From the NCBI GenBank assembly GCA_000165345.1, contig CM000430.1:576001-640000 (forward strand): 64,000 bases of DNA, in the 5' to 3' direction. The notes under the pieces are model-generated. The model was not told the origin of the DNA, ran no database searches, and saw nothing but the letters and a program-made list of their open reading frames with translations. The first letter of the stretch is position 1. Each line of letters opens with the position of its first letter. Below are positions 4,496 through 64,000 of the stretch, in pieces. Position numbers and translations under genes: made by a program.

Positions 4496-5617
4496 ATGAT
4501 AATAGTAGGATTAATTGGATTTGATAACGTAGTTGCAGAATATGCATTCAGGTTCATTGTGGAAAGGTTTAGTTTCAAAGGAATAAGACTCGTAGATTGT
4601 GAGCGAAATTGCAATTTTGATAATGCAGCGAACAAGTTAAAATCAACTAATAAGTTAGAAAGCCATTTTAAAACTTTTGGGGAGGAATGTGGCAAAAAAG
4701 CAATAAGACAAATTTGCTTTTGCGGAAGCGATTCAGAGGAATCTTATGATGATTGTATTAGGTTCAGAGCAAAGAAAGCTTTCATGATATCAACTACAGA
4801 TTTGAACTCAAGTTATGTTATTTCAAAAATAACAAAAGAAAATGAATTTGATATCTTTTCAAATACATTTTTTGTTAGTTTGGCTATAGATCTACCTTTG
4901 ATTTCTAAGCTTTCTTTGCTAGAAACGAATTACGAGAATGCAAATTTTGAAGAAGTTGAAAAATCTATTGAGGTATTAAAAAATTCCCCAGGAAAGTTAA
5001 AAGAACTTGCCTCAATATTGGTTCAAGATTTTGAAGAGAAAAAAAGGGGTATTTGTAGACTGGTAAGAAGATCTGATTATTATATCAGCTATTTCACAGA
5101 TTTTTCCGATTTGGAGAAAAAGTTGATTAATCTCGGGCTATCTAAAATAGATTCACGCCCAAACTGGGATGAATATTTTATGAAAATTGCAAAACTAGCG
5201 TCTCAAAGGTCTAACTGTGTTTCAAGAAAAGTTGGATCGGTAATTGTTAAAGACAAAAAAATCATTAGTACAGGGTATAATGGGACTCCAAAGAATATGA
5301 AGAATTGTTTCGAAGGTGGGTGTACAAGATGCTCTAACCCAAATAGAGTAGAGGGAAAATCATTGGAAACTTGCTCATGCATGCATGCAGAGACAAATGC
5401 ATTACTGTTTGCTGGGATTGATAAGTGTATTGGAGCAACTATATACGTTACATTGATGCCCTGTATCTCTTGTACGAAAAATATCATTCAATGTGAAATT
5501 GAAAGGGTCGTATTTACTACTGAGTATGCAATTCCAGACGAGATTTCCACCATTAAATTACTTAGAGATTCAAATGTAAAGGTGGATAGATTAGTGGAAA
5601 AACAGTCATGTTTATGA
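4496..5617 (+). CDS. deoxycytidylate (dCMP) deaminase with ~230 aa N-terminal extension
   Basis: C-terminal CMP/dCMP deaminase zinc-binding signature: CMHAETNALLFAG (HAE) and LMPCISCTKNI (PCxxC), preceded by VGSVIVKDKKIISTGYNGTP. A long N-terminal extension is known for fungal Dcd1-type enzymes. Confidence 0.75.
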   Translation: MIIVGLIGFDNVVAEYAFRFIVERFSFKGIRLVDCERNCNFDNAANKLKSTNKLESHFKTFGEECGKKAIRQICFCGSDSEESYDDCIRFRAKKAFMISTTDLNSSYVISKITKENEFDIFSNTFFVSLAIDLPLISKLSLLETNYENANFEEVEKSIEVLKNSPGKLKELASILVQDFEEKKRGICRLVRRSDYYISYFTDFSDLEKKLINLGLSKIDSRPNWDEYFMKIAKLASQRSNCVSRKVGSVIVKDKKIISTGYNGTPKNMKNCFEGGCTRCSNPNRVEGKSLETCSCMHAETNALLFAGIDKCIGATIYVTLMPCISCTKNIIQCEIERVVFTTEYAIPDEISTIKLLRDSNVKVDRLVEKQSCL

Positions 5618-7012: not shown

Positions 7013-7882
7013 TTAGTTACTAGAAATCCTATTTAGGTTAAACTTGCAATATTTATGATAGTTGCAAACGATAGAAATACCACAAAAAGACCTAGTAATT
7101 TCAACAAGAATAGACTTACTTGGATTTCCTAGATCGACTGGATAGAGTTTCTTGTATTCTTGGTATTTTGGGCCGTCTTCAGGACCCCAAATTAGCTCGG
7201 ATGCTAGATCATATATCTCTTGTCTCTTAATATCAGAGCCGCTGTATCTGGAATTATAGTAGCATGCCCAAGAAGCACAACTAGTTTCTTTTCCAAATTC
7301 AGACTCTGAGCAAAAGGCATTGTTGAAGCTTGACAATATCAAAGCTTTCATATTCTTATGAATTTCATCTAATTTTGCTGAGCAAATTATATCTAGTGGG
7401 ACTAATCTACTAATATATCTGGATGATAATAAGCAACCAGAATCAATTTCACTCTTTCCTCTATTTTCTTGAGTCCTATGTTCATATGCACTTTTCATAA
7501 GCTTTTCAACCAAAGCAGATGGCTTATCATTTGAATCGTTAAATTGAATTAATACCAGACATCTTGATATATTGTCTATAAGTTTGAATCTGGAATTATC
7601 CTTCTTAAACTTCTTTGTCTCTAGTTCAATGCTTTCTTCAATAGTTAAATCATCATTTGGGTAATTCGGGCTTTCCTGTTCATTATATTCGGAATTACTT
7701 AAAAGAATTCTAGATATATCTCTATAAGCTGCAATACTTTTATTATTCACTGTAATTGACATCAAAATTCCTTTATTCAAAATTCTTAGATCAGGAATTC
7801 CTGATCTTGAATTATTTGATTTCCCAACAGGGAAGTATTTTCTTTTCTTATTCATTTGCAGTATATCCGCCAGCAATACCAA
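7013..7882 (-). CDS. hypothetical protein (possibly THUMP-domain-like)
   Basis: 289-aa complete ORF; codon usage matches neighbours. Weak resemblance to THUMPD1/Tan1-type proteins only. Confidence 0.35.
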   Translation of the reverse strand: MVLLADILQMNKKRKYFPVGKSNNSRSGIPDLRILNKGILMSITVNNKSIAAYRDISRILLSNSEYNEQESPNYPNDDLTIEESIELETKKFKKDNSRFKLIDNISRCLVLIQFNDSNDKPSALVEKLMKSAYEHRTQENRGKSEIDSGCLLSSRYISRLVPLDIICSAKLDEIHKNMKALILSSFNNAFCSESEFGKETSCASWACYYNSRYSGSDIKRQEIYDLASELIWGPEDGPKYQEYKKLYPVDLGNPSKSILVEITRSFCGISIVCNYHKYCKFNLNRISSN

Positions 7883-14437: not shown

Positions 14438-14992
14438 TTATGAAATCCAAATCTGAGTAACGAGCATATCTTTTATTTGTTGATTCAGGGAGTTATACCA
14501 TTTTTCTAATTTGTAAGGCATTAATGCCCTTTTACAATTTTCTGACTCCTCGTTCCCATTGTTTATTGCAAATCCATAGGCTATTTCAGATGAAGGTTGT
14601 TTCAGTACCCAGCCTCCAGTTTTCCCAATATTAATGCATTCTAAAGTATAAGTTAGAAACGAGTTTGATTCATGGGAATAAAATATTTCCCCATCTTTTT
14701 TTCTATTTTTTATAAATATTAATTCTTCAATTCCAATTGAAGGAGCATTGACAACCAAAAATTCTGATTCAGAAAGTGGTGCTTTAGTTTCAACTTGCGT
14801 AGTAGCATCGAGTGACCAAAAATAATTAGGGTCAACAAGAAAGTATGCCTTAGAGGCTAATAAATCATTTAATTCATCTGAAATTTTTCTTGTTGATGAT
14901 CTGGCAGCTATTATATCTTTTTTCGAACATTTAATTATCGAAGTAAAAACTGATCCAATCAATATAAATATTAAAAATAAATTATTTTTCAT
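14438..14992 (-). CDS. hypothetical secreted protein (signal peptide)
   Basis: 184 aa with N-terminal MKNNLFLIFILIGSVFTSIIKCS (hydrophobic h-region, then polar). No domain recognised. Confidence 0.45.
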   Translation of the reverse strand: MKNNLFLIFILIGSVFTSIIKCSKKDIIAARSSTRKISDELNDLLASKAYFLVDPNYFWSLDATTQVETKAPLSESEFLVVNAPSIGIEELIFIKNRKKDGEIFYSHESNSFLTYTLECINIGKTGGWVLKQPSSEIAYGFAINNGNEESENCKRALMPYKLEKWYNSLNQQIKDMLVTQIWIS

Positions 14993-23305: not shown

Positions 23306-23450
23306 AAATAATTATAGATTATATAAACCTTTCTAATTTTTTTAAATTAATTTGATTATGCTATCTTTATTTTTTATTTCAGAATCAATGAGCAATTTTC
23401 AATATTTTAAGTTTTTTTTAAATATTTCACAGTGTATTTTAATCCCCACA

Positions 23451-23502
23451 ATGCATGCATAATTAACATGAATTGCAGGCATGACTATTATTTGCATGCA
23501 TG
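23451..23502. promoter_or_regulatory. cluster of GCATGCA(T) words upstream of the KDEL-receptor-like gene
   Basis: ATGCATGCAT (23451-23460) and TTTGCATGCATGG (23491-23503), plus ATCATGCAA. (TGCATGCA is a word reported as over-represented upstream of apicomplexan genes and bound by an AP2 factor.). Confidence 0.4.
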
Positions 23503-38993: not shown

Positions 38994-39176
38994 AAGGATT
39001 AAAACAAAAATCTAATTTTTAATTGACAAAGTTATCAAAGCCAGTAGTGAGCTAACACAAGCATATGCCTAGTTAGATATAAATCCCATTTACTTGTTTG
39101 AATTTTTAGATTTAAATTGACAATTAGAACTACTCTTTTCAAATATTAAAAGTTCACACTGACATGTTAGTATATA

Positions 39177-39195
39177 GGCGCCTATCTATGGCGCC
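39177..39195. promoter_or_regulatory. paired GGCGCC boxes (GGCGCC-N7-GGCGCC) in the listerin/PP5 divergent promoter
   Basis: TATAGGCGCCTATCTATGGCGCCTATATAGG lies between divergent start codons 38944(-) and 39324(+). GGCGCC is the E2F-like word described in apicomplexan upstream regions. Confidence 0.5.
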
Positions 39196-39323
39196 TATAT
39201 AGGACGAGTTTGTCCAACTGTGACGGAATTGGGGCGTAAGAACAATTACAGAAAAGTTTGGCATTTCTTGCCAGTAAATACAAGCTGCAAATAATAATTA
39301 ACTAAAGAAGAGAAGCAGGAAAG

Positions 39324-41749: not shown

Positions 41750-41771
41750 AGCGCCTGATTGTTGGCGCCAA
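41750..41771. promoter_or_regulatory. paired (A)GCGCC ... TTGGCGCCAA boxes, 8-nt spacer, RPB7/41850-gene divergent promoter
   Basis: GGAGCGCCTGATTGTTGGCGCCAATTG lies between starts 41665(-) and 41850(+). Nearly the same composite as at 49997-50016. Confidence 0.5.
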
Positions 41772-41849
41772 TTGTATTAATTTAATATTTAATAAGAATT
41801 ATTATGTAGCAAAATATTTTAAAAAGTATAAGACCAATAAGGGGCAAAG

Positions 41850-49862: not shown

Positions 49863-49996
49863 GGAAAAATATAAATATTAGAAAATTTCAATGAGTTTTT
49901 TCTCTTTTTAAGTTAATCAAATTACTCCTTTTTAATTCTCGCTTGTCCTTCACCTTACCCACAACTATAGATTAAAAAATTGCAAAAAAAAGCGGA

Positions 49997-50016
49997 GGCG
50001 CCTGAGTCTTGGCGCC
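49997..50016. promoter_or_regulatory. paired GGCGCC boxes, 8-nt spacer, NSF/50110-gene divergent promoter
   Basis: GCGGAGGCGCCTGAGTCTTGGCGCCAAATTTC lies between starts 49862(-) and 50110(+). Confidence 0.5.
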
Positions 50017-50109
50017 AAATTTCATGTCAAGATTAGATTTACAATAATGTTAGAAGAACTAAATAAAAGTGAATATTAAAAGGGATTTGAAGAAAATTAA
50101 TTCAAAGAA

Positions 50110-50637: not shown

Positions 50638-51099
50638 CACTAATTTTTGGGTAAATCTTCTCATTTAGTTTTTCTAATAAACCTTTCTAAATTACTTTCA
50701 TTATTAATACAATTGATATCCAAAAAGTAGTATATTTTTATCACCTCATTTTTTGTATAACTTCATATTTAATTTTCTTTCTGATTTTTCAATGATTTAT
50801 TCTATTCAAATATATTTATTTACTCTTATAATATTGATTGCAAACTAATGGAAATGGCGCCATGATCTTCAAAGATAGTAATGCATGCGGAGTATCACAA
50901 AGACGAATATACTAAATTCCTATAAAACAACATAAAAGATTAATTTATAAAGTATTAATTAATCTTAAATAAGAATCTTAGTTTTAAAATTTATATTTTC
51001 AAGGGATAAAACAATATATCACAGTAAAGTTAATAACGATTGCCTAGATCTAGCAATTATCTGTAAAGCAGAAATTAAATTGATCGAATATTCACAAAG

Positions 51100-53214
51100 A
51101 TGAAAACTGAAACTAAAATTTCTCTGTTTTTTTCTTTTATAATTCTATTATGTGAATACTCTTTCTCTTTGGGTAATATTCAAAATCAATTTGAAAGATT
51201 TAGAACTTTTAATACTAATCATGACTTGCTAGAGCATCATCAAAACCCCAGTTCAAAAATACAAAGAACAAATGAGGATATTAAAGATGGCGTAAGCCCT
51301 TTATTTGAAAAGCCTGAATTAGATGGCAGATACAATAAATATAGAAAAATATACGACAAAAAAAACCAAAATGAAAAAATTAAGAGAAAGGATCAATTAA
51401 AAAATCAAGTGGAAGAACTGCTAGAAGATATGGACTATGTGAAGCAAAAGCAACGGTACTTAGAGTCAGACACATTAGACAAATATTTTTCATTTAGAGG
51501 AGCAGAAGAACATTCAATTGATGATTTGGACTTTGAAGGATTATTTGATCCAGAATATGGAGGAAGAGGAAGAGTTCTGGAAAGTTATAAAATCACCACA
51601 AATGATATTTACAAAGATGAATTAAAACCAAGAAAATATGAATACGCTATTGGAGCAACTCTAAGAGATAAGAGATACGACAAGCATAGAAAAGAGAGCA
51701 ATAATGAAATTGTATTAGTTATTACTCCAAAGAACTTTTTTGCTGATAAAGATGGAAAACTCTCACTTTTACCGAGTTTAGCTCTTAAAATAAACAAAAA
51801 CTCAAAGCTCTCAACATTAATAAAAATGATCCACAAACTCATATCTTATGCTTATCCAGGTATATTAATTGAAAGGATTCGTCATTTAGAAACACAAATT
51901 ATTTTGAATGAAGCACCCAAAACAGCTAAACTCAGTTCTTTAAAAATAAAAAATGGGAACGAAATCTCTGTTACATTTAAAAATGTACCCAAAGATAAAA
52001 AATCAGATAAGTACCATCAAACTCAAGAATTACCTATAGAAGAGCTTCCAATGACTCCAATAGAAAAAGATATTCCTGAGCTTCCTGAGCTGGATGTTCA
52101 GGAAAATCTTGATTTAAGTCAAGGTCCCAGTACTCAACAAAGCTTAGAAACTAAAGTATTAAAATCTAAAGATGATATTTTGAATGAAGATGAAATTTTA
52201 GAACCTAATAAAACCATTGAAAATCCTTTATCCAATAATTATGATTTTAATGTTGGGGATGAATATGAAAAATTAAAGTCTGATTATTTTCAAAACATCA
52301 GAGCTGGCAAAATTGCTATATATAACTCTGATGACGAACCACCAAGACAATCTAATCACAAAGAACATCAATTTGTATTAAGCGATGAGGGAATTGATAA
52401 TGATGGACAAGAAAGAGCAGTAGAGGCTGAGAAAATAGACATTAATGATTCTGATGACTCCTATTTAGGAACTGATATAAATCATTGCAACTATAAGGTA
52501 AACTTCAAACAAATTACATTACCTGTATCAAATTTTACTAATGAAATCGAACGGAACAATATTAAAGATATTTTAACTCTTAACGTAACATTTAGCGAGC
52601 TTGAGCCATGTAATTTGGAAACACTTATTTCAGAAGTGAATAAAATAGCAAAATCCATGGGAAAGAATTATTCTCTTGTTAGAATGGAACATAATGCATC
52701 AAAGAGAGAGCTACTAGCTCTTTCAAAAGATAACGAGAAGCACCATCTTTTGGATCTCGAAATAATTAGGGGTGACGAATTTAATGCATTTTTAATACTT
52801 GAAAAAACTCAAGAATCTGACTATTCAAAGAATGATATTGATAAACATGATGTAGAAATTATATCTGATCTGACTGAGAAACAGATTTCTATTGCGGACT
52901 GTCAGATATACATGACCATTTTTGTTGATTCAGCATCACTTCGCGATAATATTAACCAATCCCTTTCCAAGGAACCCCTTAACAAGAATAGAAGCTTAGG
53001 AAAAGGAGGAAAAAAGCATCTTAAACCAATTAATATATGCACTCAAAGTTATGTTCCTATTAAAAAAGTACTAGAAAAGATCAAGATTATATTGAAAGTA
53101 GATTCAAATTTGAATGAAATTTTCATATGCGGAGATAAAATTGTAGATACTTGTAGCAGTTTACCAGTTTCATTAATCAAATCAGAAACATGTGTTCTTC
53201 GATTTGATTCATAA
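51100..53214 (+). CDS. hypothetical secreted protein (signal peptide), K/E/D-rich
   Basis: 704 aa; N-terminal MKTETKISLFFSFIILLCEYSFSLG. No recognised domain. Confidence 0.5.
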   Translation: MKTETKISLFFSFIILLCEYSFSLGNIQNQFERFRTFNTNHDLLEHHQNPSSKIQRTNEDIKDGVSPLFEKPELDGRYNKYRKIYDKKNQNEKIKRKDQLKNQVEELLEDMDYVKQKQRYLESDTLDKYFSFRGAEEHSIDDLDFEGLFDPEYGGRGRVLESYKITTNDIYKDELKPRKYEYAIGATLRDKRYDKHRKESNNEIVLVITPKNFFADKDGKLSLLPSLALKINKNSKLSTLIKMIHKLISYAYPGILIERIRHLETQIILNEAPKTAKLSSLKIKNGNEISVTFKNVPKDKKSDKYHQTQELPIEELPMTPIEKDIPELPELDVQENLDLSQGPSTQQSLETKVLKSKDDILNEDEILEPNKTIENPLSNNYDFNVGDEYEKLKSDYFQNIRAGKIAIYNSDDEPPRQSNHKEHQFVLSDEGIDNDGQERAVEAEKIDINDSDDSYLGTDINHCNYKVNFKQITLPVSNFTNEIERNNIKDILTLNVTFSELEPCNLETLISEVNKIAKSMGKNYSLVRMEHNASKRELLALSKDNEKHHLLDLEIIRGDEFNAFLILEKTQESDYSKNDIDKHDVEIISDLTEKQISIADCQIYMTIFVDSASLRDNINQSLSKEPLNKNRSLGKGGKKHLKPINICTQSYVPIKKVLEKIKIILKVDSNLNEIFICGDKIVDTCSSLPVSLIKSETCVLRFDS

Positions 53215-53334
53215 TTAGGCCTTATTCTGATTAAAACTTTGAATCCATTGATTAAATTTAGCAATAGAATATTTTATAGTAAGTATATAAATCATTTTCT
53301 ATTTGCCTGCTACTCCCTCAATTTAATACCATTA

Positions 53335-54330
53335 TTAAGGGCTGGTCCCACATAATAAATTCATGCAATCATAGTATTCTACGGAACAACCATATCTTTT
53401 GCAGCCGACCATACAAAAGTCTTTTGAGTACTGTGAGCATTGAGACATGCATGACACTGGAATACTCGAAACTCCAGCAACTATAGGTCTGTTTACATTG
53501 CAAGCTCTTCCACAAGTCTTTATAAAATACATACTTAATGTAAGAGCACATGGACCATTGCCTTTGAATTCGTAATTTCCAAGAGTTGATGCAGAAGATA
53601 TCAAGGATAGGGGGGCAGGAAGGAAGCCCACTTCGAATTTGAGGTTTCTTTTTTGTTTATGAGTAAGAAGATATTCCACAAGCATTACGCATGAGGAAAC
53701 CACAAGCTCTGATTCCATATCATCGAGACTTTTGAGATTCTTTGCAGTTGAGCAAATATCATCATTATATGCTAGACTAAAAATGTCTGGTTTTTCTTGT
53801 TTAAGTGCTTCCGTCTTAGAGCACAACATTCCCAGTTCTAAAAGAGCAACCAAAGATTGGCAGCAGTTCTAAAATGATTTGAGTTTTTTTTTTGTTAGTA
53901 TTCCGCTAAGAATAATATCCTACACTTTACTTACTGGAGCAGGTTTCAACGTTGTTTCAGGAATTTTTAGTTCCTCACACCTTTTTTCAATAAATTTTAA
54001 GGTAGAGCTAATTAAAAGACTTTTTACACGCTTTAGTTTTATATTTTCACGTTCAAGTAAAAAAAATATCATGAGCTAGTAATTTCTTAGAACTTACTGT
54101 GCTTGGATCGTTCTTAGTGTGATTATGATGAGTTGAATTTCGATTGCTCATTTCCTCTGAGAAATTCATTTGTTTTATATACGGTTGCATTAAAATACGA
54201 GCAAATTTAAAAAATGTTTATAACCAAGTTATGTTTTCAATTTCTTACCACTCATTCTTATGGTTTCGGATCTTATATTTTGGCAGGCAATTAGCAAAAA
54301 CACAACAAAAAATATAAAGTGAATTTTCAT
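53335..54330 (-). CDS. small secreted 10-Cys protein, paralog A of a local 3-gene family (3 exons)
   Basis: Model join(53335..53868,54098..54156,54249..54330). Exon 1 MKIHFIFFVVFLLIACQNIRSETIRMS (signal peptide), donor G|GTAAGA. Exon 2 (E)EMSNRNSTHHNHTKNDPST, flanked by tctcAG and GTAAGT. Exon 3 begins NCCQSLVALLELGMLCSK after ttttAG, as in paralog C. C-terminus C-x11-C-x3-C-x15-C-x3-C-x7-C-x3-C-x4-C-x6-C-x4-C. Phases are consistent, but the 229-nt intron 2 is unusually long here and the intron positions are the least secure part. Confidence 0.45.
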
Positions 54331-54533
54331 TTTCAAGGATCTTGGAAAATTAGTTTTTGAATTTCCTTTAAATATATGAAGGCTATAATATAAGCTGTTA
54401 AATAGTTTATTTTAGAAAAAATCAGGCTAATCTTAGCATGCAAACTTATTGCATAATACACATGAATTAATAAGCAAAAATAATCAAAAACTATAATTTA
54501 AGTACATACATTCGTTTGCATGTAATCATGTTT

Positions 54534-54560
54534 ACATGCATGCAATGTCAAATGCATGAA
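54534..54560. promoter_or_regulatory. cluster of GCATGCA words upstream of Cys-rich paralog B
   Basis: TTTGCATGTAATCATGTTTACATGCATGCAATGTCAAATGCATGAA lies 160-200 bp upstream of the ATG at 54716. Confidence 0.4.
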
Positions 54561-54715
54561 TATTTACAAAAACTCAGGCCTACAAGTTAAAGATACTCGG
54601 TTAAGAATTATAAGTTCCATTTTATATTTTAGACAAATTTTTTGCTGAAATCACTAAAATTGCAATTTTGTGAAAACAGCAGTTATTCTGAGAAACATAA
54701 TGTAAAATTATCACT

Positions 54716-55678
54716 ATGTTGCATTTCGGCTTTCTTTTAATATTCTTCTTGCTTCCATTTATTGGAAGAACTGCGGATCCTGATTTAAAATTTAAAAATT
54801 TGAATGAATCCAAGAAGGGGTTGGTTAAAGAAGAACCTCCTTTTGCTACCAGCGTTAAAATGAGTGAAAATAATGAAACAATTGTAAGTAAACTTTCTCA
54901 TCAAAACTAATTAGTATAACAAGTTATTTTTCTCCCCTCTTTATAGTCAGATTTTTCAATCTTAAACTCATCAAAATTTAATAATATTTTGTCAGCTGAA
55001 ACTACATGCTCAAGAAAGCTACAAAATAAGGATAAATATCCGAATTGCTGCTCTTCAATTGTTTCAATTTTTGAAACTGAAAGGATTTGCAATCAAAAAC
55101 CTCAGATAGACAAGTCTCTAAATGAAAGCAATGGAGAAATTGCAAGAGAACTATCAGAAATCAAGCAATATTATGATTACCATTGTAACAATACAGAGTA
55201 CCAACTTTTAGTTTCAAAAAATATCACATCAGATGATGTGTATAACTGTATGAGGTATAATGAATTAACTACAAGAAGTACAAATAGCACATTACAGGAA
55301 TTGGATGGAATTAAATTAAAAGATAGTGAATCCATAGTCGACAATCAAAGAGCATTACAAATAACTGGTTGGATGAATAGTTTTGGATTACCTGCAATTT
55401 CTTCGACTACTATGCTTTCACAATCAAGGTTTACTGAGGGCTCATTCATGCATTCAAGTGGAGGTCAAAATTGCTCTCCACTATTAACATTAATATTTGT
55501 TCGTGTTTGTAACTCTATCTGTAATGCCAATAACGACTCTTCTTCTGGAAGAGCATCAATACCTATTTTTTGTTTAAGGGACTGCCAGCCTTTTGCAAAG
55601 TTTGCCTGCTTGCGTGGGTGTAGAACCTTTGGGTGCCATGTTGATATATACACCTGTATGGAACTTATGTGTCAGTGA
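54716..55678 (+). CDS. small secreted 10-Cys protein, paralog B (2 exons)
   Basis: join(54716..54883,54947..55678). Exon 1 MLHFGFLLIFFLLPFIGRTADPDLK... (signal peptide). Donor GTAAGT at 54884; acceptor ctctttatAG at 54945-54946. Exon 2 contains the NCCSSIVSIFETERIC module and the C-terminal VCNSICNAN...IPIFCLRDCQPFAKFACLRGCRTFGCHVDIYTCMELMCQ. Confidence 0.55.
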
Positions 55679-55730
55679 TTTTGTCAAGGTATTTTGTAAG
55701 GTATAAGAAACAAAAATCTAAAGTAAATTT

Positions 55731-56481
55731 TTACGTAAGCTTGAAGTTACACATTTGGTAACTGCATGCATCAAAAGGTATATTACACCCGAAAAAAGAG
55801 CATCCACGTATGCAAACATGGTTTGCAAAATCCACACAAATTGGGAAGCATGATCTCGGGAATACCTCTTCTTCTACCGTAAGTGCAGTCTCTGCATCGC
55901 ATAGTTTTTCACATACTTTAATATAATGCAAGGAAAGCACAGATACACATATTTTTTGGGTTTGATATTTAAATATATTTCCTTGAGGGGTATCTTGAGG
56001 TCCTCTTAACGATGATGTTGATTGGGGAAGTCTGATATGAGATCCAAATCCTGACTTTATTTGTAGTTTCCTGTCAGTAAAATTCATTTCTTTACAATAT
56101 TCAAAATTTTCATGGTTTTTCCAAGAATTGACATCATCAGAATCTGATTTTTTTAGTATTTGACTACACTCACTATTGAATGCTATAAATTCACTCTTAT
56201 TTCCCATCTCTTCTAGTAGGCCAGTTTCATTATTAGGCCTATTTAAACAAATTTCTTTTGAATAGAGTGAAATCGTTATTTCATTACAGCAGCTCTAAAA
56301 GGAATAAAATTTAATATTTCTTGAACACCTTATAAAATGTTAGATTTCATTGACTCACCTTTAATTCTTTCATATTGTTATCATTGATACTTTCTGAGAT
56401 CAATCTTTGACATTTTCCATCACATTTACATCTTATTAAAAATAACATAATTAAATACAAGATCCCAATAGTATTTACCAT
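55731..56481 (-). CDS. small secreted 10-Cys protein, paralog C (2 exons)
   Basis: join(55731..56294,56359..56481). Exon 1 MVNTIGILYLIMLFLIRCKCDGKCQRLISESINDNNMKELK (signal peptide). Donor GTGAGT (plus actcac at 56353-56358); acceptor ccttttAG|AGC TGC TGT. Exon 2 SCCNEITISLYSKEICLNR... ends VCEKLCDAE...SCFPICVDFANHVCIRGCSFFGCNIPFDACSYQMCNFKLT. Confidence 0.55.
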
Positions 56482-57135
56482 CGACGGCTAACTTATTAGG
56501 AAAAGCAATTTTTTTAAAAAGAATATATTCTTTTTGCATGTAGTTAAGGATAAATTATGTGGAAATGTCATAAATGACCAACAAATAGCTTGCCGCCCGA
56601 TTGCGCTGGTAAACAATAGGGTAAAAGTAGTGAAAATAGAGTAAACACAAGATAATAATTGAATATAAATATAAGGTTAATTATGCAATATATATGCTTA
56701 ACAATAAAAGCTAGCTGGATTAAATGCTCGATGTGAACAGAAAAAAAAGGAAAACGTGAATAATTCGGTAATTAAGATATAAATGTAAATACAATTGATT
56801 GCTTGCCTAAAATTAATTATATAATTCCAATAAACTTCCGAACATAATTAAAACTTCCTTCATTTAGCTAAAGGTCTTTAATCTTGATTCCACGATGAAT
56901 TATAGAACTTTGATTATGAGAAATTAATATCTGGTAAATATAATCGGAGCTCTATTTGCTATACGATAATAATATATTTGAATCAATTTACTGATACCAC
57001 CCATATAGAAGCCCATACTCTTAAATTATTAGTATACCTCTTTTTCTTTTCACGAACAGTAAGTATAGAGTAAATTAATTAGATTTCTTTTTCCTTTTTT
57101 TCCATGTTATTTCTTGAATAGAATATTTATCTAAT

Positions 57136-57684
57136 TTACCAGCCTGTCATACTAGTAGAACTAAATGGTTGCATTTGTTGTTGAGCAGATGGAGAAGGTC
57201 CACCACCAACAGACGTAGGACCAGATGCTCTGTAAGCTGCCATTTCAGCAAGATATTTTTGCTTAAATTCTTGTGCCTTTCTCTCCCATGGACCTTTTTC
57301 TTGTTCAGGAAGACTATTCCACATTTCCGCTAAGTCTTTCATTTGAAGTGCACGATTAGGGTCATTCTCTCTAACTTTTTGACGAATATGTTCACACCAT
57401 AGTGTATAAGCAGTATGTGGTCTTTTTGGTTTATTTGGATCCTCTGGTGCTCTAATAGATCTCTTAGATTTCTGTTGCAATAAGATTCTGGGTTTCCACA
57501 TTTTACCAGTGCGAGCAGCCACATTACTTGCCAGATCTACAAAGAAGTCAGCAAATTCACAAAGTATATCAACAATTATTGCATCAGAATTTGTAGAAGA
57601 GCCAACTCCTGATGGCATTGATCCTGGTGGCTGTGGAACAGAAAGTCCAGGTAATCCACCCGGAAGGTTTATTTGATTGGACAT
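57136..57684 (-). CDS. HMG-box DNA-binding protein
   Basis: HMG box DPNKPKRPHTAYTLWCEHIRQKVRENDPNRALQMKDLAEMWNSLPEQEKGPWERKAQEFKQKYLAEMAAYRA, with P/G/S/Q-rich flanks. Confidence 0.7.
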   Translation of the reverse strand: MSNQINLPGGLPGLSVPQPPGSMPSGVGSSTNSDAIIVDILCEFADFFVDLASNVAARTGKMWKPRILLQQKSKRSIRAPEDPNKPKRPHTAYTLWCEHIRQKVRENDPNRALQMKDLAEMWNSLPEQEKGPWERKAQEFKQKYLAEMAAYRASGPTSVGGGPSPSAQQQMQPFSSTSMTGW

Positions 57685-58688
57685 TTCAGAATTGCGTTGA
57701 ATAATTGCTTAGTGACTTGTACTTTTATTTCCTTATGAAGGAAAAATTGCCTTTTTTTTGTTGTAAATTAACACTTTTGAAGAAAGGCCTTAATCCTGAA
57801 CCTGCTAAGTAATTAACTTGACTATTGTTATTTTCCTATATTTTTTAAGTCTTGTTATGACCGTACCGGAATTCTTAATTATTGGCACTTAATTTGCTGC
57901 AAAGCTAGAGTATATAGACATAGGTAGCTATCCAAAGACAGTTAAGGATGTAGATAGATATAGTATCTACTCCCGCCCATCTGTAGACACTATGCATTGA
58001 CTATTTATTTTACTTTAATTTGACTTGTTAAAAAAAAAAAAATTTCACACATTTTTGTTCGTAACTTAATTACAAAGATTGTTTTTGAAATTAAACATTC
58101 AAATTACTAATATGTTCCCTCATTTTTTTTCACTCTCTCAATCACTAAAATAGCATTGCTTAAGGCGATTTCAAATCTCCCGCCTAAAAAATGCATGGCT
58201 GTACGTATATTGTAGTATACCGGGATTGACATTGTTCTATTCATAATTTAATTTGAAATATCAGGAACAATATTATTGTTTAAAGCTATGGTAAAAATGG
58301 GTTGTCGTTAAGCACTACCTTTTGTTATTTAGTTATTGGTTTTCTTTAATTTTTTCAAAGTTGTCATTTCGTTGTTTTATTTCACTTGCAAATGAAATTT
58401 GCTGACTATTTAGTCTATATTATTTGTGAACCGCCAAGTTTAATTCTAAATTATTACAAGAAGTAAAAATAACGGGTGCTAAAATGTGAGGGATCTGCTA
58501 AATTTTAATTTATTTCTAATAAAAAAAAACTTTATAGTATTTAATTTGATGGTCAAAAATTCAGTTTATGATATATTGCAAGTTACATTAGGCTTTATTT
58601 AAGATAAGGGATATATTTTTATCAGAGCTTTCTAGTAAAGAAACACAAAGTTAATTATTATTTCATTCAAGAATAGCTGTGTGGACTC

Positions 58689-59864
58689 ATGATTAAGTAT
58701 AAAGCTATAGGCAAATATTTGATACTCCTCTGTTATGCTTTTAACATCTTTCTTAGTTTAGTTTTTTGCCAGGAGTTAACATCAATTCTCAATCCTGAAG
58801 GTGGGGGTGGGTTTTCATGTAATTATACTAATGCAGAATATACTTGCGGTGGATATTCTGTCACTCCCTGGAGTTCATGGGGAATCTGTTCTGGTTGTAA
58901 CGGAGTAATCACCAGACAAAGGTCAATTTCTGGAAGCGCTACGCAAGGAGGGCCAAGCACAACCGAACGTGTAAAATGCCTCAATAACCAATCATGCGAA
59001 CCATGCACTTATACTCAGTGGTCTTCATGGTCTGCATGCTCAGACACATGCGAATCTGGGACCAAATATAGAACTCGCAGAGTTAATTCAAATGTAGATT
59101 GTGGTGTTTCTGAAGGTGAACTTAAACTTATAGAAACTGTCAGCTGCAAAAACGACCCATGCAAGTGCGATGAAACAATTAGAGGAGAAAATGGACTGTA
59201 CTACAGAGGCTGCCAGAAATACTCTAGGTCTGGCCAAAAGTGCTTGAATTGGCTGTCTCTAAAATTCGATGCTTTTGATTATTTAGCCACTCTTGAAAAT
59301 TCGGGTATTGCCGACCACTCCTTTTGCAGAAATCCTATTTCTAACAATACTTTAGTTCCAACAATCTGGTGTTACGTAAGCGCATCTCCTCTAATTCCAC
59401 AACTCTGTGATCCTGTTCCAACTGATTGTGTAGTTTCAGAATGGGAGCAGTGGTCCTCTTGCTCTTCTACTTGCGAAGAAGGGAAGATTACCCGTACAAG
59501 AACTATTATCCAAGAATCACTTCATGGAGGAGTAGAGTGCCCAGTAGATTTGGAGCAGGTTCAGGATTGCTCAGTTGATGTTATTTGTCCAGTTGATTGC
59601 ATATTAGGATCCTGGAGTCATTGGTCATCATGTAGTGTAGAATGCGGTAAGGGGAATTCTACTCGGTCCAGAAGTATACTGACTCGTCCAAGGGGTACAG
59701 GAGCTGTTTGTCAGGAATATCTACAAACAAAGTCGTGCGAAGGAGAAGGCTGTATGAGTTTTTGGGAAAAGAATAAATACTCAATTATTGGTTTTGCAGC
59801 GTTGGGAGTCGTCCTAATTATATCTATTATTTATATTTTAATTCCAAGTAATAACAGTGTTTAG
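58689..59864 (+). CDS. thrombospondin type-1 repeat + kringle domain type-I membrane adhesin (TRAP/TSP-family-like)
   Basis: Signal peptide MIKYKAIGKYLILLCYAFNIFLSLVFCQE. TSP1 repeats WSSWGICSGC, WSSWSACSDTCESG, WEQWSSCSSTCEEG, WSHWSSCSVECGKG. Kringle-like CYYRGCQKYSRSGQKCLNW...DHSFCRNP...IWCYV. C-terminal TM helix IIGFAALGVVLIISIIYILI and short tail. Confidence 0.75.
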   Translation: MIKYKAIGKYLILLCYAFNIFLSLVFCQELTSILNPEGGGGFSCNYTNAEYTCGGYSVTPWSSWGICSGCNGVITRQRSISGSATQGGPSTTERVKCLNNQSCEPCTYTQWSSWSACSDTCESGTKYRTRRVNSNVDCGVSEGELKLIETVSCKNDPCKCDETIRGENGLYYRGCQKYSRSGQKCLNWLSLKFDAFDYLATLENSGIADHSFCRNPISNNTLVPTIWCYVSASPLIPQLCDPVPTDCVVSEWEQWSSCSSTCEEGKITRTRTIIQESLHGGVECPVDLEQVQDCSVDVICPVDCILGSWSHWSSCSVECGKGNSTRSRSILTRPRGTGAVCQEYLQTKSCEGEGCMSFWEKNKYSIIGFAALGVVLIISIIYILIPSNNSV

Positions 59865-60535
59865 TACTGTAACCTAACTTACAAGATACTGACGAAGTTT
59901 TAACAGCAAGAATTTCAATAATTAAATCAAAGGTTTTCATAATTAACTAATATTAATCTTACACCTATTGCATATACTGCAGGGCACTTATAATTTTATC
60001 TAGAGTAGCCTTACAGTTAATGCTAGTGAAAAACTATATGAAAAATTTAATACTAATTATCATCTTAAAATAAATTCATTTAAAAATTAAATATTTAAAA
60101 AAAATGCTATAAAAATTTAGGCTTTGAATTTTTAGTGGTATGCCGGGACTTTTGTTGAAAGTTGCAAAAAATTAACTGGCGACTTTTTATGATTCTGAAT
60201 CCATGATTTTTTTTTCGCTCAAACTTTCCAGAATAAAGTAAATTCCCAAAGATGTTCTAAGTACATATAACTGCTCTTCTATCATTCATTACATCATTCA
60301 GATTTGTATGGTATTATACTAGTGTACAGTTTTGTGTAATATGACCAAAATTACATGTCTTATTTTAGGCGGGCGATCACATTAGGCTCGCATAAGAGGG
60401 GCGGGTGTAGATCTGATTAGTTTCTCAGTTTAAACAAAAAGTTGATTGGGGAGAAAAAAGCAGAACTATAAAAGAAGTTGCAAGAAAGTACAATTAACTA
60501 TTCTTATTTTTAAGTCTTTGAGAGAGCCTATTTAA

Positions 60536-62140
60536 TTGAAAATGAAGAATCTCGTGAAGGTTATTTTGGGGCTTTTATTTGGACTAGTTTCAGTCCATTC
60601 TCTAAGCCTGAGAGCAGGAAGCCAAGAATTGATTATCAGTGAAGACGTTTCAGATTTATTTAATGGGAAAGAGGTCAGAAAAATTGAGGTAAGATCCCCA
60701 GTTTCAGGTATATTAAGCAAGGTGAATATCCATCAAACTGGCTATCATAGCTCAGGAACAGCCTTTGTAGTAACAGCTGACTCTAGCCAGTATTATAAGA
60801 GTACTATCAATACAGGAGGCAAGAATGTATCAGTAAAGAGAGTCATCGATGCTGGCAGGAATGTATACATTCAGATCTTTAGAGATTCATATGTTACGTT
60901 ATATACAAACAAGGTTGTTGGCGATAGTGTTTCTCAATATGATCTCTTAGCAATATTATTTGTTGTTAAAACTAGACAGGGAGAAGCTCCACTTGTTAAG
61001 AAGTTACCAAGATCTGTTCCAACAATGCCAATTCCTAATCCAACTGCTTCATCTACTACTGTTGATTTAGAAACTGTGAACTCAAGTTTGGATTCCAGTT
61101 CTGGACAAATTTCTGAATCAGCGGCTGCTGAGGAAGCTGGACTTGATAAGGAGCAGAAATTGGACTTGACAGGAGAGAGCTCACCAACAGTTGAAGCTGA
61201 GAGAGTTACTGAAGAAGTAAAAGCCGATGAAACATCAAACGAAGTTGTGACTCAACAGACATCTGAAGAGATTGCTGAAAAGGTCGACTCAACATTGGAT
61301 AATCTTGCTTCTATTCCAGAAAAATCAGAATTAGATACTGATGTTACAGATGAAGAAACCAACAAAGAGAATGACTTCTCCGAACTTTCAGAATTTGCAT
61401 CTGATTCAGAAGAGTCTAAGGGAGCAAGCTCTTCTCGTAATTCAGAGTCTGAACCTGAACCAGCTTCCGTAGCCAGTTCTGAGAATGAGTCTCAAATGAC
61501 TAAGCCTGATCAAGGGATCGAGCCAACTGTGGAAGAATCGTCTACAGAAATCAGAGTCCTTGCAGAAAAGCAGGATACTGAAACTCCTAGTTTAGATCAA
61601 GGAGAAACAATTGAAACTCAAACAAATATTGTTAAGGTTTCTGAGGTTAGCCAAGCACCTGAAGATGTTATTGAAACCAAGCCTATTACTGAAGAGCTTT
61701 CAGCTGAGGAAAATTCTCAAAAGGTAGATGAACCTAAAACTGAACAAGATTTGAAGGATGAATCTTCAGCTGAGCCCCCAGTTGAATCCCCAATTGAATC
61801 CCCAATTGATTCTCCAGCTGAATCCCCAATTGAATCTCCAGTTGAATCTCCAGTTGAATCTCCAGTTGAATCTCCAGCTGAATCTCCAGCTGAGTCTGCA
61901 ACTGTTGCACCTACAACTGAGACTGCTGAGGAAGCCAAAGAAGAGGAGCTTTTACAAGGCCTCCCATCTCAACCAGTTCTTGGACAGTTAGAGATAGCTG
62001 AAAAGCTTGAAGACTTGGACACTGAGCCATCTGAGAGTATGGAAGAATCAGGAGGTGATGGGGTTGCTTCATTGGATTCTGCTGGGAGAATGATTGGTTC
62101 TGATATTGAGAATAGTGGATCAGCTATTGAGAACCCTTAG
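60536..62140 (+). CDS. secreted acidic S/E/P/T-rich (mucin-like) protein with xESP tandem repeats
   Basis: Signal peptide MKMKNLVKVILGLLFGLVSVHS. Highly acidic low-complexity body. 12-nt-period repeat encoding VESPIESPIDSPAESPIESPVESPVESPVESPAESPAES at about 61777-61896. Confidence 0.55.
   Translation: MKMKNLVKVILGLLFGLVSVHSLSLRAGSQELIISEDVSDLFNGKEVRKIEVRSPVSGILSKVNIHQTGYHSSGTAFVVTADSSQYYKSTINTGGKNVSVKRVIDAGRNVYIQIFRDSYVTLYTNKVVGDSVSQYDLLAILFVVKTRQGEAPLVKKLPRSVPTMPIPNPTASSTTVDLETVNSSLDSSSGQISESAAAEEAGLDKEQKLDLTGESSPTVEAERVTEEVKADETSNEVVTQQTSEEIAEKVDSTLDNLASIPEKSELDTDVTDEETNKENDFSELSEFASDSEESKGASSSRNSESEPEPASVASSENESQMTKPDQGIEPTVEESSTEIRVLAEKQDTETPSLDQGETIETQTNIVKVSEVSQAPEDVIETKPITEELSAEENSQKVDEPKTEQDLKDESSAEPPVESPIESPIDSPAESPIESPVESPVESPVESPAESPAESATVAPTTETAEEAKEEELLQGLPSQPVLGQLEIAEKLEDLDTEPSESMEESGGDGVASLDSAGRMIGSDIENSGSAIENP
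61777..61896 (+). repeat. 12-nt-period coding tandem repeat (xESP)n, about 10 units
   Basis: (G/C)(T/C)TGAATC(T/C)CCA units encode VESP/IESP/AESP/IDSP. The repeat generates spurious antisense and +1 ORFs in the ORF track. Confidence 0.7.
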
Positions 62141-63010
62141 TAGTTTTTATTTAGTCAAATCTTGTTTCTGGGCCAATTATCACTAGTGTCCTGATTTAAA
62201 TTGAAGGAAGTTATTTTAATTTTGATTTATAGATGAAGTTACATGGTTCAAAAACTATTGGACTGTTAATCTTTAAGCTTTTACTAATATTTAATTTATA
62301 TTATTTTTCAATGGGATTCCGTAGTTGGTTTGAAGCAAAATATTGAATTTTTTGGTCGACATTCAATTTCTAACTTGATAATTGAAGAATTTCTAATTAT
62401 TTCCAACCAAAATTCGAATATTTTTTCTCCTAATTAGTATCTAAATGAATTTTTTAATAAAAGATGAAGTATGATTATTTATGTACTGTTTTCTCAGGTT
62501 GAGACGTTTTGCTGTGATTGCCCCTTGCTATTTATTTCTATTTGTTTTCTATTTAAATCTAGTATTATTTATTTAGCAATTAAAACTTTGGCTCCAAGAA
62601 GAAGTACTGGTAAGGACACTTATTAAAATAACTAAAAGTTTAATAACAAAATTATTGTTGAGAGGGGGATGTTTTTTTTTCTATATTTAACTTGCATGCA
62701 ATTTATATTCACAAATTATGCGGTAATTTGTGAAACTATTTAAAATTTTTGTAGAAAATGCATTTATTAGAACAGCTATATAATGTATGAATACATTAGT
62801 TAAAACAAATTGAGTATAAGTACTAATATATGAGAAAAAATAATTCTTTAAATACAAGGTTTTTATAATTAGGTTTATTTAATCTTTATTATATATATTT
62901 TTTTTTGCCAGGAATAATTACAAAATAACACAAGGGTGGAGACAAAAATAGTCAAGCGGGGTATTTCTTAAACAAATAAGTGTTTTCTGAGTTTAGTCTG
63001 TAAAAATACA

Positions 63011-64000
63011 ATGCCTATTAAAATAGATAATTACAGAAGAGAACAATGCTACTTTACTGATTGGTTGAGAACTGTAGCGTGCATACTTGTTTTGTCGGTA
63101 CATGGAATGGTGCTAGTTCAGAGAATATTCAATTTGAGTGATATCGACAAGGATATATCTGATAATTACTTATTGATTCTGCTCCACCATGGAATGCCGG
63201 TTTTCTTTTATTCATCTGGAAGAGCAGCTTTCTTTTCTGCAAACAAATCAGGTAAGCGATAATTAACTAAATAGAAATTGATAAAATTCTGTTTATATAA
63301 CTATTGAAATATTGTAGAAAATTGCGGATTCCTGAACTTCCTATATAAGAAGACTCTTCGACTTTTGATACCTTCAATAGCAGGATACTTTACTGTAGTT
63401 GCAGCAGCAGCATACTTAGGGTCAGATTGGCGTCCATGCGCACCAACTCGTCCATATAATTCAGTATTTGACTTTTATTCAAGATTTCTTGCAGAATTTA
63501 ATTGCTCTGGATTAGAGTGGCTTTGGACTCTACCTATGATTTTTGCAATTTCAATTATGAATTGGCCATATACGATATATTTGAATCGTGTGGCAAAAGA
63601 ACGGGCGCTCACAAAGTTTAAAGTTAGTTTAAAGAAAGAAAATGAGTCCGAAAAGATAGTGAATTTTTTTAAGGAGAATAAAACACTATCGATGAGTTTT
63701 TTGTTTATAGCAACAATGATGTTTTCTTTACATATTCTTTTAAGTTTTTCAGTGAAGGGGATACTGGTTCCAGTGATATTGTGTTATATTTCACTACCTT
63801 TATTCGTTAAGTTTGTAGCTAAAGCTAATCTAAATGAGAAAAGTGACTCGAAAATTACGTCATTTTTAGCTTATTTACCACTTTATTTATCATCCGCATA
63901 TATTGGTTTGAAATTGGATGATTCAGTCAACAATACATTTTCTTCCAATTATAATTCAAATAATATTCTCCTCTATGGTATGAGATTAGCCGGTGATGAA
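63011..64000 (+). CDS. multipass membrane protein (acyltransferase-3/HGSNAT-like?), 3' part leaves window; 2 exons
   Basis: Exon 1 63011..63251 (MPIKIDNYRREQCYFTDWLRTVACILVLSVHGMVLV...). Donor CAG|GTAAGC at 63252; acceptor attgtAG at 63316-63317. Exon 2 from 63318 stays open to the window end and carries at least 5 hydrophobic helices (LLIPSIAGYFTVVAAAAYLG, WLWTLPMIFAISIMNW, SFLFIATMMFSLHILLSF, LVPVILCYISLPLF). The family assignment is a guess. Confidence 0.45.

Follow-up and report, generated by a model that had tools for sequence, protein, structure and literature searches.

A syntenic run of signal-peptide genes on Cryptosporidium parvum chromosome 2 contains a co-expressed Cys-rich triplet and is probably not a single regulon

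A run of seven genes towards the right end of a 64,000-nucleotide window of DNA (assembly GCA_000165345.1, contig CM000430.1, forward-strand positions 576,001 to 640,000; coordinates given below are counted from the first letter of this window) raises the question of whether neighbouring genes whose products are directed to the secretory pathway are also regulated together. The window is part of Cryptosporidium parvum chromosome 2, and the segment of interest extends from cgd2_3030 to cgd2_3090, encompassing three Cys-rich genes (cgd2_3040, cgd2_3050 and cgd2_3060; hereafter the triplet), an HMG-box gene, the thrombospondin-repeat gene CpTSP10 and two further genes for predicted secreted proteins. 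A sequence-only reading of the window had proposed that these genes constitute a co-regulated surface or secretory-organelle locus with recurrent GCATGCA words in its promoters. Here, we find that the secretory nature of six of the products is supported and that only the triplet behaves as a co-expressed unit.

The identity of the segment follows from exact matches. The 391-amino-acid (aa) open reading frame (ORF) in its right half is identical to CpTSP10 of C. parvum Iowa II (EAK88706.1; Q5CTG7, equated with cgd2_3080 in a published table), the 704-aa ORF at its left end is identical to EAK88711.1 (Q5CTH2), and the window matches CP029781.1 with 100% identity over the 15.3 kb compared. A second published table identifies the HMG-box gene as cgd2_3070. 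The features of the segment are collected in Table 1.

Results

An old family of Cys-rich paralogs

The three Cys-rich proteins share 22-31% pairwise identity and ten invariant cysteines in a common C-terminal pattern, which bears out their description as paralogs in the sequence-only reading. All three genes are spliced, with three, one and one introns in cgd2_3040, cgd2_3050 and cgd2_3060 respectively, and in each the signal peptide is encoded in a short first 5' exon. The introns at 53869-53934 in cgd2_3040 and 56295-56358 in cgd2_3060 are equivalent, both being in phase 0 and lying one codon before a conserved CC motif; cgd2_3050 has its one intron at a different position. For cgd2_3040, the 256-aa model that starts at 54330 (CP044421) is the only one to include the signal peptide; the proteins annotated in other assemblies and species measure 225-233 aa and are truncated at the N-terminus. 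A homologous and unannotated signal-peptide mini-exon (MNIFYSFVLVLLIICQIVSSEPILM, L009:9804-9893) lies upstream of the cgd2_3040 ortholog in C. felis.

Relatives of the triplet were found in Cryptosporidium species only, both in an indexed search and in an exhaustive HMMER profile search of 1.84 billion representative proteins, which was run without the spliced cgd2_3040 row and which returned nine matches, all with E < 1e-30 and all from Cryptosporidium. The new family members identified in this way come from C. felis, C. serpentis, C. muris and C. andersoni. OrthoMCL places cgd2_3040 and cgd2_3060 in separate orphan groups. A neighbour-joining tree resolves the family into three orthogroups and puts a member from the gastric species C. 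serpentis in the 3040 group, implying that at least one of the duplications is older than the radiation of the genus and its gastric/intestinal split. During this analysis, we also noted a second, unannotated family member in C. muris (DS989742.1, L008:7529-8568), located between CMU_030430 and the cgd2_3030 ortholog. This copy is 42% identical to the C. serpentis protein over 225 aa, has a possible signal-peptide exon at 7529, and may be interrupted by a frameshift or small intron.

A Pfam scan of all ORFs gave no match for cgd2_3030, for the triplet or for cgd2_3090, and sequence searches of the PDB with the family profile, cgd2_3030 and cgd2_3090 yielded no meaningful match. An AlphaFold2 (AF2) model of cgd2_3060, generated from a 17-sequence alignment, had a mean predicted local distance difference test (pLDDT) score of 52, with the Cys domain below 50, and is unreliable.

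The triplet is expressed in females, together with oocyst-wall genes

Published expression data place the triplet in one cluster. In sorted-cell RNA-seq (Tandel et al. 2019), cgd2_3040 rises from 0.96 log2 counts per million (CPM) in asexual stages, which is the floor, to 7.43 in in-vitro and 5.64 in in-vivo females (log2 fold change, log2FC, 6.47), and cgd2_3060 rises from 0.96 to 5.59 in vitro and 3.93 in vivo (log2FC 4.63), so that the female enrichment of these two genes is 25- to 90-fold. In bulk RNA-seq, all three members of the triplet fall in BulkCluster4, whose genes are high in sporozoites, off at 24 h and switched on by 48 h, the log2 CPM values for cgd2_3040/3050/3060 being 4.4/9.8/7.0 in sporozoites, -2/1.6/0.6 at 24 h and 7.2/7.2/6.0 at 48 h. 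COWP1 is described in the same paper as having the same 24 h-off, 48 h-on behaviour, and the wall components are reported there to be made by females and stored in wall-forming bodies.

Two fractionation studies connect two members of the triplet with the oocyst wall. In the analysis code of Tandel et al. 2023, to the extent that it lists class members, cgd2_3040 is placed in the 'oocyst wall' class of a spatial proteome (hyperplexed localisation of organelle proteins by isotope tagging, hyperLOPIT) beside COWP1 (cgd6_2090), and several other members of the class (cgd2_1590, cgd2_4350 and cgd3_3700) also belong to BulkCluster4. An oocyst-wall-enriched proteome (Wang et al. 2022) contains three peptides from cgd2_3050 (24.6% coverage) and, weakly, one from cgd2_3040. 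This proteome includes ribosomal proteins and histones as well, so contamination is possible.

AP2_1 elements are conserved at the triplet and are not common to the segment

The window contains more copies of GCATGCA than expected (19 strand hits, against an expectation of 5.45), roughly half of them in its left 50 kb. The octamer TGCATGCA corresponds to the AP2_1 element. The excess of this element in the intergenic DNA of C. parvum has been known for a long time, and some 1,000 genes have it upstream. Known binders are the ApiAP2 protein cgd2_3490 (peak at 72 h) and P. falciparum PF14_0633, and the element is enriched in expression clusters that are low at 2, 6 and 24 h. Exact intergenic sites in the window are found before the KDEL receptor gene (two), before cgd2_3030 (one), in the 3040/3050 bidirectional promoter (two) and before cgd2_3100 (one). 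Thus, three of the six signal-peptide genes (cgd2_3030, cgd2_3040 and cgd2_3050) have the element upstream, and the motif scan found no exact GCATGCA upstream of cgd2_3060, TSP10 or cgd2_3090 in C. parvum. The sequence-only reading had recorded the word in three promoter regions. The site at 54537 is exact, the one at 58191 reads TGCATGG and has one mismatch, and the one at 62693 lies upstream of cgd2_3100, outside the seven genes; exact sites at 54436 and 50882 had been overlooked. The word recorded there is a known and general element, present before three of the six signal-peptide genes. An E2F-like TGGCGCCA is also located upstream of cgd2_3030, at 50855.

The sites at the triplet are retained in other species. 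In C. felis, the 3040/3050 spacer contains four GCATGC(A) sites and a further one lies just before the 3060 ortholog, and in C. muris the sole site in 16.8 kb sits 82 bp upstream of a Cys-rich family member. The TSP10 and cgd2_3090 orthologs of C. felis and C. muris have no GCATGCA site upstream.

Other motif occurrences in the window were noted as well. Two TGCATGCA sites and a G-box-like CCCCACA lie at 23444-23500, 290-340 bp upstream of the KDEL receptor gene cgd2_2920. This gene and cgd2_3490 both appear in the female-only top-500 expression list, which suggests that the motif tracks late or female expression locally and not secretory status. Paired palindromic E2F-type sites with GGCGCC cores occur in short divergent housekeeping promoters at 39176-39196, 41762-41772 and 49996-50019, between the gene pairs listerin/PP5, S1/hyp1100 and AAA/ICln, in contrast to the AP2_1 sites of the Cys-rich genes. 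In addition, two overlapping TGCATGCA octamers (TGCATGCATGCA) are present at 5378-5389, within the coding sequence of a deaminase (4496-5617).

The neighbours of the triplet follow other programmes

CpTSP10 (cgd2_3080) was reportedly named in 2002. It has the TSP1 repeats and the signal peptide that define the CpTSP family, as judged from its hydrophobic N-terminus and the exact match described above. The sequence-only reading had taken it for a type-I membrane adhesin with four TSP1 domains and a kringle. The kringle, the transmembrane (TM) segment and three of the TSP1 domains hold up: Pfam (TSP_1/TSP1_spondin, E = 1e-42) places three stretches above threshold, the fourth, N-terminal copy is degenerate and falls below it, and the single TM segment is followed by six residues, PSNNSV. 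TSP10 is assigned to the micronemes by hyperLOPIT, as cited second-hand in PMC13095730, and its mRNA level, low in oocysts and in sporozoites, is high during the intracellular stages. Within the limits of the source in which it is listed, it has also been proposed as a candidate rhomboid substrate.

The product of cgd2_3090 is acidic (isoelectric point 4.1, 26% D+E) and carries an array of 11.6 copies of a 12-nt unit, encoding xESP repeats, at 61759-61897. To this extent its description as an acidic xESP-repeat protein stands; the tail has 24% S+T and 7.8% P with no poly-Ser/Thr runs, leaving the mucin-like character unproven. The conserved N-terminal domain gave only sub-threshold noise in Pfam, and orthologs are confined to Cryptosporidium. 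The gene is in the top 500 of all three sorted stages, has been reported in late-male and female single-cell clusters with reduced expression in a CDPK5 knock-out mutant, and is represented by 10 peptides in the oocyst-wall-enriched fraction, where it is among the stronger matches. The length of the xESP array varies, with 16 residues (four units) missing from the C. hominis ortholog; this ortholog is 92% identical to cgd2_3090, as against 97% for TSP10 and 95% for cgd2_3030.

The orthologs of cgd2_3030 are likewise found in Cryptosporidium only. AF2 places its predicted modules at about residues 203-294, 461-567 and 603-702, with pLDDT values of 70-88, separated by long, acidic and disordered linkers, and Foldseek matches these modules to the UBL domains of USP7, polyubiquitin, ISG15 and SUMO. 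Judged from this model, cgd2_3030 would combine a signal peptide with tandem Ubl-like modules in one protein, an unusual combination. By quantitative PCR (qPCR) its transcript is near the detection limit (1e-9 to 1e-7), with an increase between 36 and 72 h. Expression of the HMG-box gene cgd2_3070 is lower in in-vitro females than in oocysts or asexual stages (log2FC -1.84 for females against asexual stages).

These profiles bear directly on the proposed co-regulated locus, for which a lack of co-expression among its genes had been named as the finding that would speak against it. The published transcriptomes show such a lack for the group as a whole: the triplet is co-expressed, and cgd2_3090, TSP10, cgd2_3030 and the HMG-box gene differ from it. 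As far as the sources list them, the organellar destinations differ too, cgd2_3040 being placed in the oocyst-wall class and TSP10 in the micronemes.

The clustering of signal-peptide genes and its conservation

Signal peptides were judged by a hydropathy heuristic, the maximum 10-residue Kyte-Doolittle window near the N-terminus. By this measure, a hydrophobic core (2.3-3.6, starting at residues 5-18) is present in six of the seven genes, the Pfam-supported HMG-box gene being the only interruption, as the sequence-only reading had it; this supports the view that the six genes encode secretory-pathway proteins. Only one of the 22 genes to the left (14438-14992) has a clear signal peptide (6/7 against 1/22; Fisher's exact P = 1e-4 within the window). 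The left 50 kb is indeed dominated by housekeeping genes, including those for Brr2, SYF2, ribosomal proteins, listerin, PP5, a CDC48-like AAA protein, ICln and others. The gene at 14438-14992, which lies on the minus strand within this housekeeping part, encodes a 184-aa protein with the signal peptide MKNNLFLIFILIGSVFTSIIKC and no Pfam domain. Scans of the window for tRNA genes and Rfam families found none.

When the tandem triplication is counted once, the segment reduces to four signal-peptide units out of five. Taking the genome-wide signal-peptide fraction to be 0.15-0.25, which is our assumption (the review PMC12688253 gives no such figure), and about 3,900 genes, between 9 and 60 runs of this kind would be expected per genome, so under this assumed fraction the run is of a kind expected by chance.

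C. felis keeps the gene order, as does C. muris, a distant gastric species, in line with what a conserved locus would show. However, the flanking ribosomal and AAA genes are also syntenic, which indicates that synteny is general in the genus and does not speak for a functional cluster. Genes of the secretory pathway continue beyond the window: cgd2_3100 codes for a membrane acyltransferase, and a signal peptide is present in cgd2_3110. The latter is, by gene order, probably the next gene to the right of the window (L001:16884-19994), which encodes a 1,036-aa protein with the signal peptide MNYLLLFTLLSQLIAAVYS; cgd2_3110 is in the top-500 expression list of all three sorted stages. Both cgd2_3090 and cgd2_3110 appear in the supplement of PMC13241007 as non-significant mass-spectrometry background only.

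Table 1 Features of the cgd2_3030 to cgd2_3090 segment and its right flank
Feature	Position	Strand	Description
AP2_1 (GCATGCA) site	50882..50888		218 bp upstream of cgd2_3030; motif scan
cgd2_3030	51100..53214	+	704 aa; signal peptide, three predicted ubiquitin-like/beta-grasp modules, disordered linkers
cgd2_3040, Cys-rich paralog 1	53335..54330	-	256 aa; exons 54330-54249 (signal peptide), 54156-54098, 54030-53935, 53868-53335
Bidirectional promoter cgd2_3040/cgd2_3050	54331..54715		385 bp; exact AP2_1 sites at 54436-54442 and 54537-54544; one-mismatch TGCATGA at ~54553
cgd2_3050, Cys-rich paralog 2	54716..55678	+	299 aa; intron 54884-54946; signal peptide
cgd2_3060, Cys-rich paralog 3	55731..56481	-	228 aa; intron 56295-56358
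cgd2_3070, HMG-box protein	57136..57684	-	Pfam; no signal peptide
E2F-like GGCGGGA sites	57971, 58178 (57971..58184)		divergent HMG/TSP10 spacer
cgd2_3080 (CpTSP10)	58689..59864	+	signal peptide, degenerate TSP1, TSP1, kringle, TSP1, TSP1, TM, 6-aa tail
cgd2_3090	60542..62140	+	532 aa; signal peptide, conserved ~140-aa N-terminal domain, acidic disordered tail
TGCATGCA site	62693..62700		317 bp upstream of cgd2_3100; equivalent site before the C. felis acyltransferase ortholog
cgd2_3100	63011..64000	+	Acyl_transf_3 membrane protein (Pfam); continues past the window end

Discussion

Taken together, these data make it likely that the segment is a syntenically conserved juxtaposition of genes for proteins targeted to the endoplasmic reticulum, with the triplet as its core and unrelated neighbours on other programmes, and not one regulon. 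As a secretory locus the segment is ordinary: its genes are already annotated, and public transcriptomes and spatial proteomics already separate the programmes of the neighbours. The modestly new item is the Cys-rich family, which is Cryptosporidium-restricted, has a 10-Cys C-terminal domain, and supplies candidate non-COWP oocyst-wall proteins.

In the explanation that we favour, the core would be an old, alternately oriented tandem triplication (cgd2_3040, cgd2_3050 and cgd2_3060) within this family, each member having a putative signal peptide, a helical N-terminal half with the CC motif and the C-terminal domain with its ten invariant cysteines. The triplet would be transcribed together in female gametes, the likely driver being the TGCATGCA (AP2_1) elements in the 3040/3050 bidirectional promoter, presumably bound by an ApiAP2 factor. 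The products would then most likely pass through the secretory pathway to the wall-forming bodies, and may end as disulfide-bonded structural components in or on the oocyst wall. Beside them, CpTSP10 would be a micronemal type-I TSP1/kringle zoite protein, with E2F-type motifs and no AP2_1 element in its spacer, cgd2_3090 would be an acidic repeat protein strongly expressed in all stages examined, and cgd2_3030 would be a scarcely expressed secreted protein with ubiquitin-like modules. Going further, we tentatively propose that the triplet and its orthologs constitute a hitherto unrecognised, genus-wide structural family of the oocyst wall or wall-forming bodies, unrelated to the COWPs, arranged as an ancient inverted tandem array, characterised by the 10-Cys domain, and turned on in females via the conserved TGCATGCA in the bidirectional promoter, possibly through cgd2_3490.

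A number of observations weigh against this reading. The wall assignment comes from one hyperLOPIT class label, taken second-hand from the analysis code of another paper, together with a wall-enriched proteome in which ribosomal proteins and histones are also present. The mRNA of cgd2_3050 is very abundant in sporozoite RNA (9.8 log2 CPM), which also fits a sporozoite-stage protein and leaves room for a role at that stage, and the gene is not in the sorted female-versus-asexual differential expression list. Upstream of cgd2_3060 in C. parvum there is only a one-mismatch AP2_1 site. The signal-peptide calls are based on hydropathy and conservation, and the low-confidence AF2 model of the family (pLDDT 52) lends the wall role no structural support. 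Furthermore, in an older qPCR series cgd2_3030, cgd2_3040, cgd2_3050 and TSP10 peak at 48-72 h and cgd2_3090 is roughly flat from 6 h, so the signal-peptide genes may share some late trend.

Some of these points would be accounted for if the triplet were not wall material at all, but were produced in sporogony to equip the sporozoite, for instance as proteins of its surface or secretory granules, with the wall label reflecting co-fractionation or contamination. The high level of the transcripts in sporozoite RNA, that of cgd2_3050 especially, would fit, as would the visible contaminants in the wall proteome and the fact that hyperLOPIT was performed on excysted material. We nevertheless regard this as unlikely, because in-vitro females, which do not proceed to sporogony, already express the genes strongly, because the pattern is common to COWP1 and other wall-class members, and because small Cys-rich proteins are what is expected of cross-linked extracellular matrices.

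The late qPCR maxima could also indicate a looser island of late, sexual-stage and oocyst secretory genes, in which cgd2_3030, the triplet, cgd2_3090 and perhaps TSP10 would all serve the formation of gametes, zygotes or oocysts and would share a permissive chromatin domain without having identical profiles. The AP2_1 site upstream of cgd2_3030 is compatible with this, and so are the late-male and female single-cell clusters, the reduced expression in the CDPK5 knock-out and the wall-fraction peptides of cgd2_3090. However, cgd2_3090 is equally among the top 500 in sorted asexuals, TSP10 is a sporozoite micronemal protein (according to the second-hand assignment) with E2F-type sites upstream, the HMG-box gene in the middle shows the opposite expression trend, and many genes have late rises in qPCR when rRNA serves as the reference, all of which makes such an island quite improbable.

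That all six signal-peptide genes form one co-regulated locus through a shared GCATGCA, for example of invasion-stage adhesins and mucins, is highly improbable and has been largely refuted by the published transcriptomes, since against the local enrichment of signal peptides, the over-representation of the motif and the gene order conserved from C. parvum to C. muris stand a triplet that is off in asexual stages beside an asexual top-500 gene (cgd2_3090) and one near zero (cgd2_3030), the different compartments given by the sources for TSP10 and cgd2_3040, the absence of the exact motif before half of the genes and its spread across the genome, the generality of synteny in the genus, and the origin of three of the six genes in a single duplication event.

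If the explanation that we favour is correct, a Cys-rich family that is co-expressed in female gametes, conserved throughout the genus and not found outside it would supply further candidates, other than COWPs, for the proteins of the oocyst wall, whose composition is poorly defined. This wall is the chlorine-resistant structure that makes Cryptosporidium a waterborne pathogen. The 385-bp bidirectional promoter, with its conserved AP2_1 sites, offers a handy test case for transcriptional control in the female stage. The analysis also provides gene-model corrections, namely the signal-peptide exon of cgd2_3040, which is absent from most annotations, and the unannotated C. muris paralog.

Comparison with known systems places the individual parts of the segment. 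TSP10 resembles TRAP-C1 and CpTSP8/MIC1 in its signal peptide, TSP1 repeats and single TM segment and, as far as the sources list these proteins, in its microneme assignment and candidate status as a rhomboid substrate. It is unlike TRAP/MIC2, in which a vWA (I) domain accompanies TSP1, in that the Pfam scan gives TSP1 and kringle only, with the kringle lying between TSP1 repeats. The tail of TRAP has an acidic stretch and a subterminal Trp that link it to the motor; the 6-residue tail of TSP10 contains neither an acidic residue nor a Trp. With respect to known AP2_1 regulons, the TGCATGCA octamer found here is exact, palindromic, enriched in intergenic DNA and kept upstream of orthologs in three species, and differs in that the motif is not confined to secretory genes, being found in the window before the KDEL receptor and acyltransferase genes as well.

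The CpLSP, FLGN, MEDLE and SKSR families and the chromosome 2 mucins are tandem arrays of secreted-protein genes. Like these, the triplet consists of adjacent, genus-restricted, fast-evolving genes with signal peptides and no Pfam domain. It differs from them in being chromosome-internal (about 640 kb into 992 kb) and not subtelomeric, in having three members in alternating orientation, in predating the gastric/intestinal split, and in female-gamete expression in place of zoite secretion into the host cell. Two of the family names, CpLSP and FLGN, occur in the annotation of published expression tables.

The COWPs are built of large arrays of type I/II Cys repeats. The triplet proteins are small (228-299 aa), have one 10-Cys domain and show no detectable sequence relationship to COWPs, since the profile search matched only the family's own nine representatives, alongside the lack of a Pfam or PDB match. 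What they have in common with COWP1-9 is a Cys-rich composition, a signal peptide, and expression that is absent at 24 h and present at 48 h or in females; in addition, cgd2_3040 and cgd2_3050 have been reported in the hyperLOPIT wall class, as far as its members are listed, or in the wall fraction.

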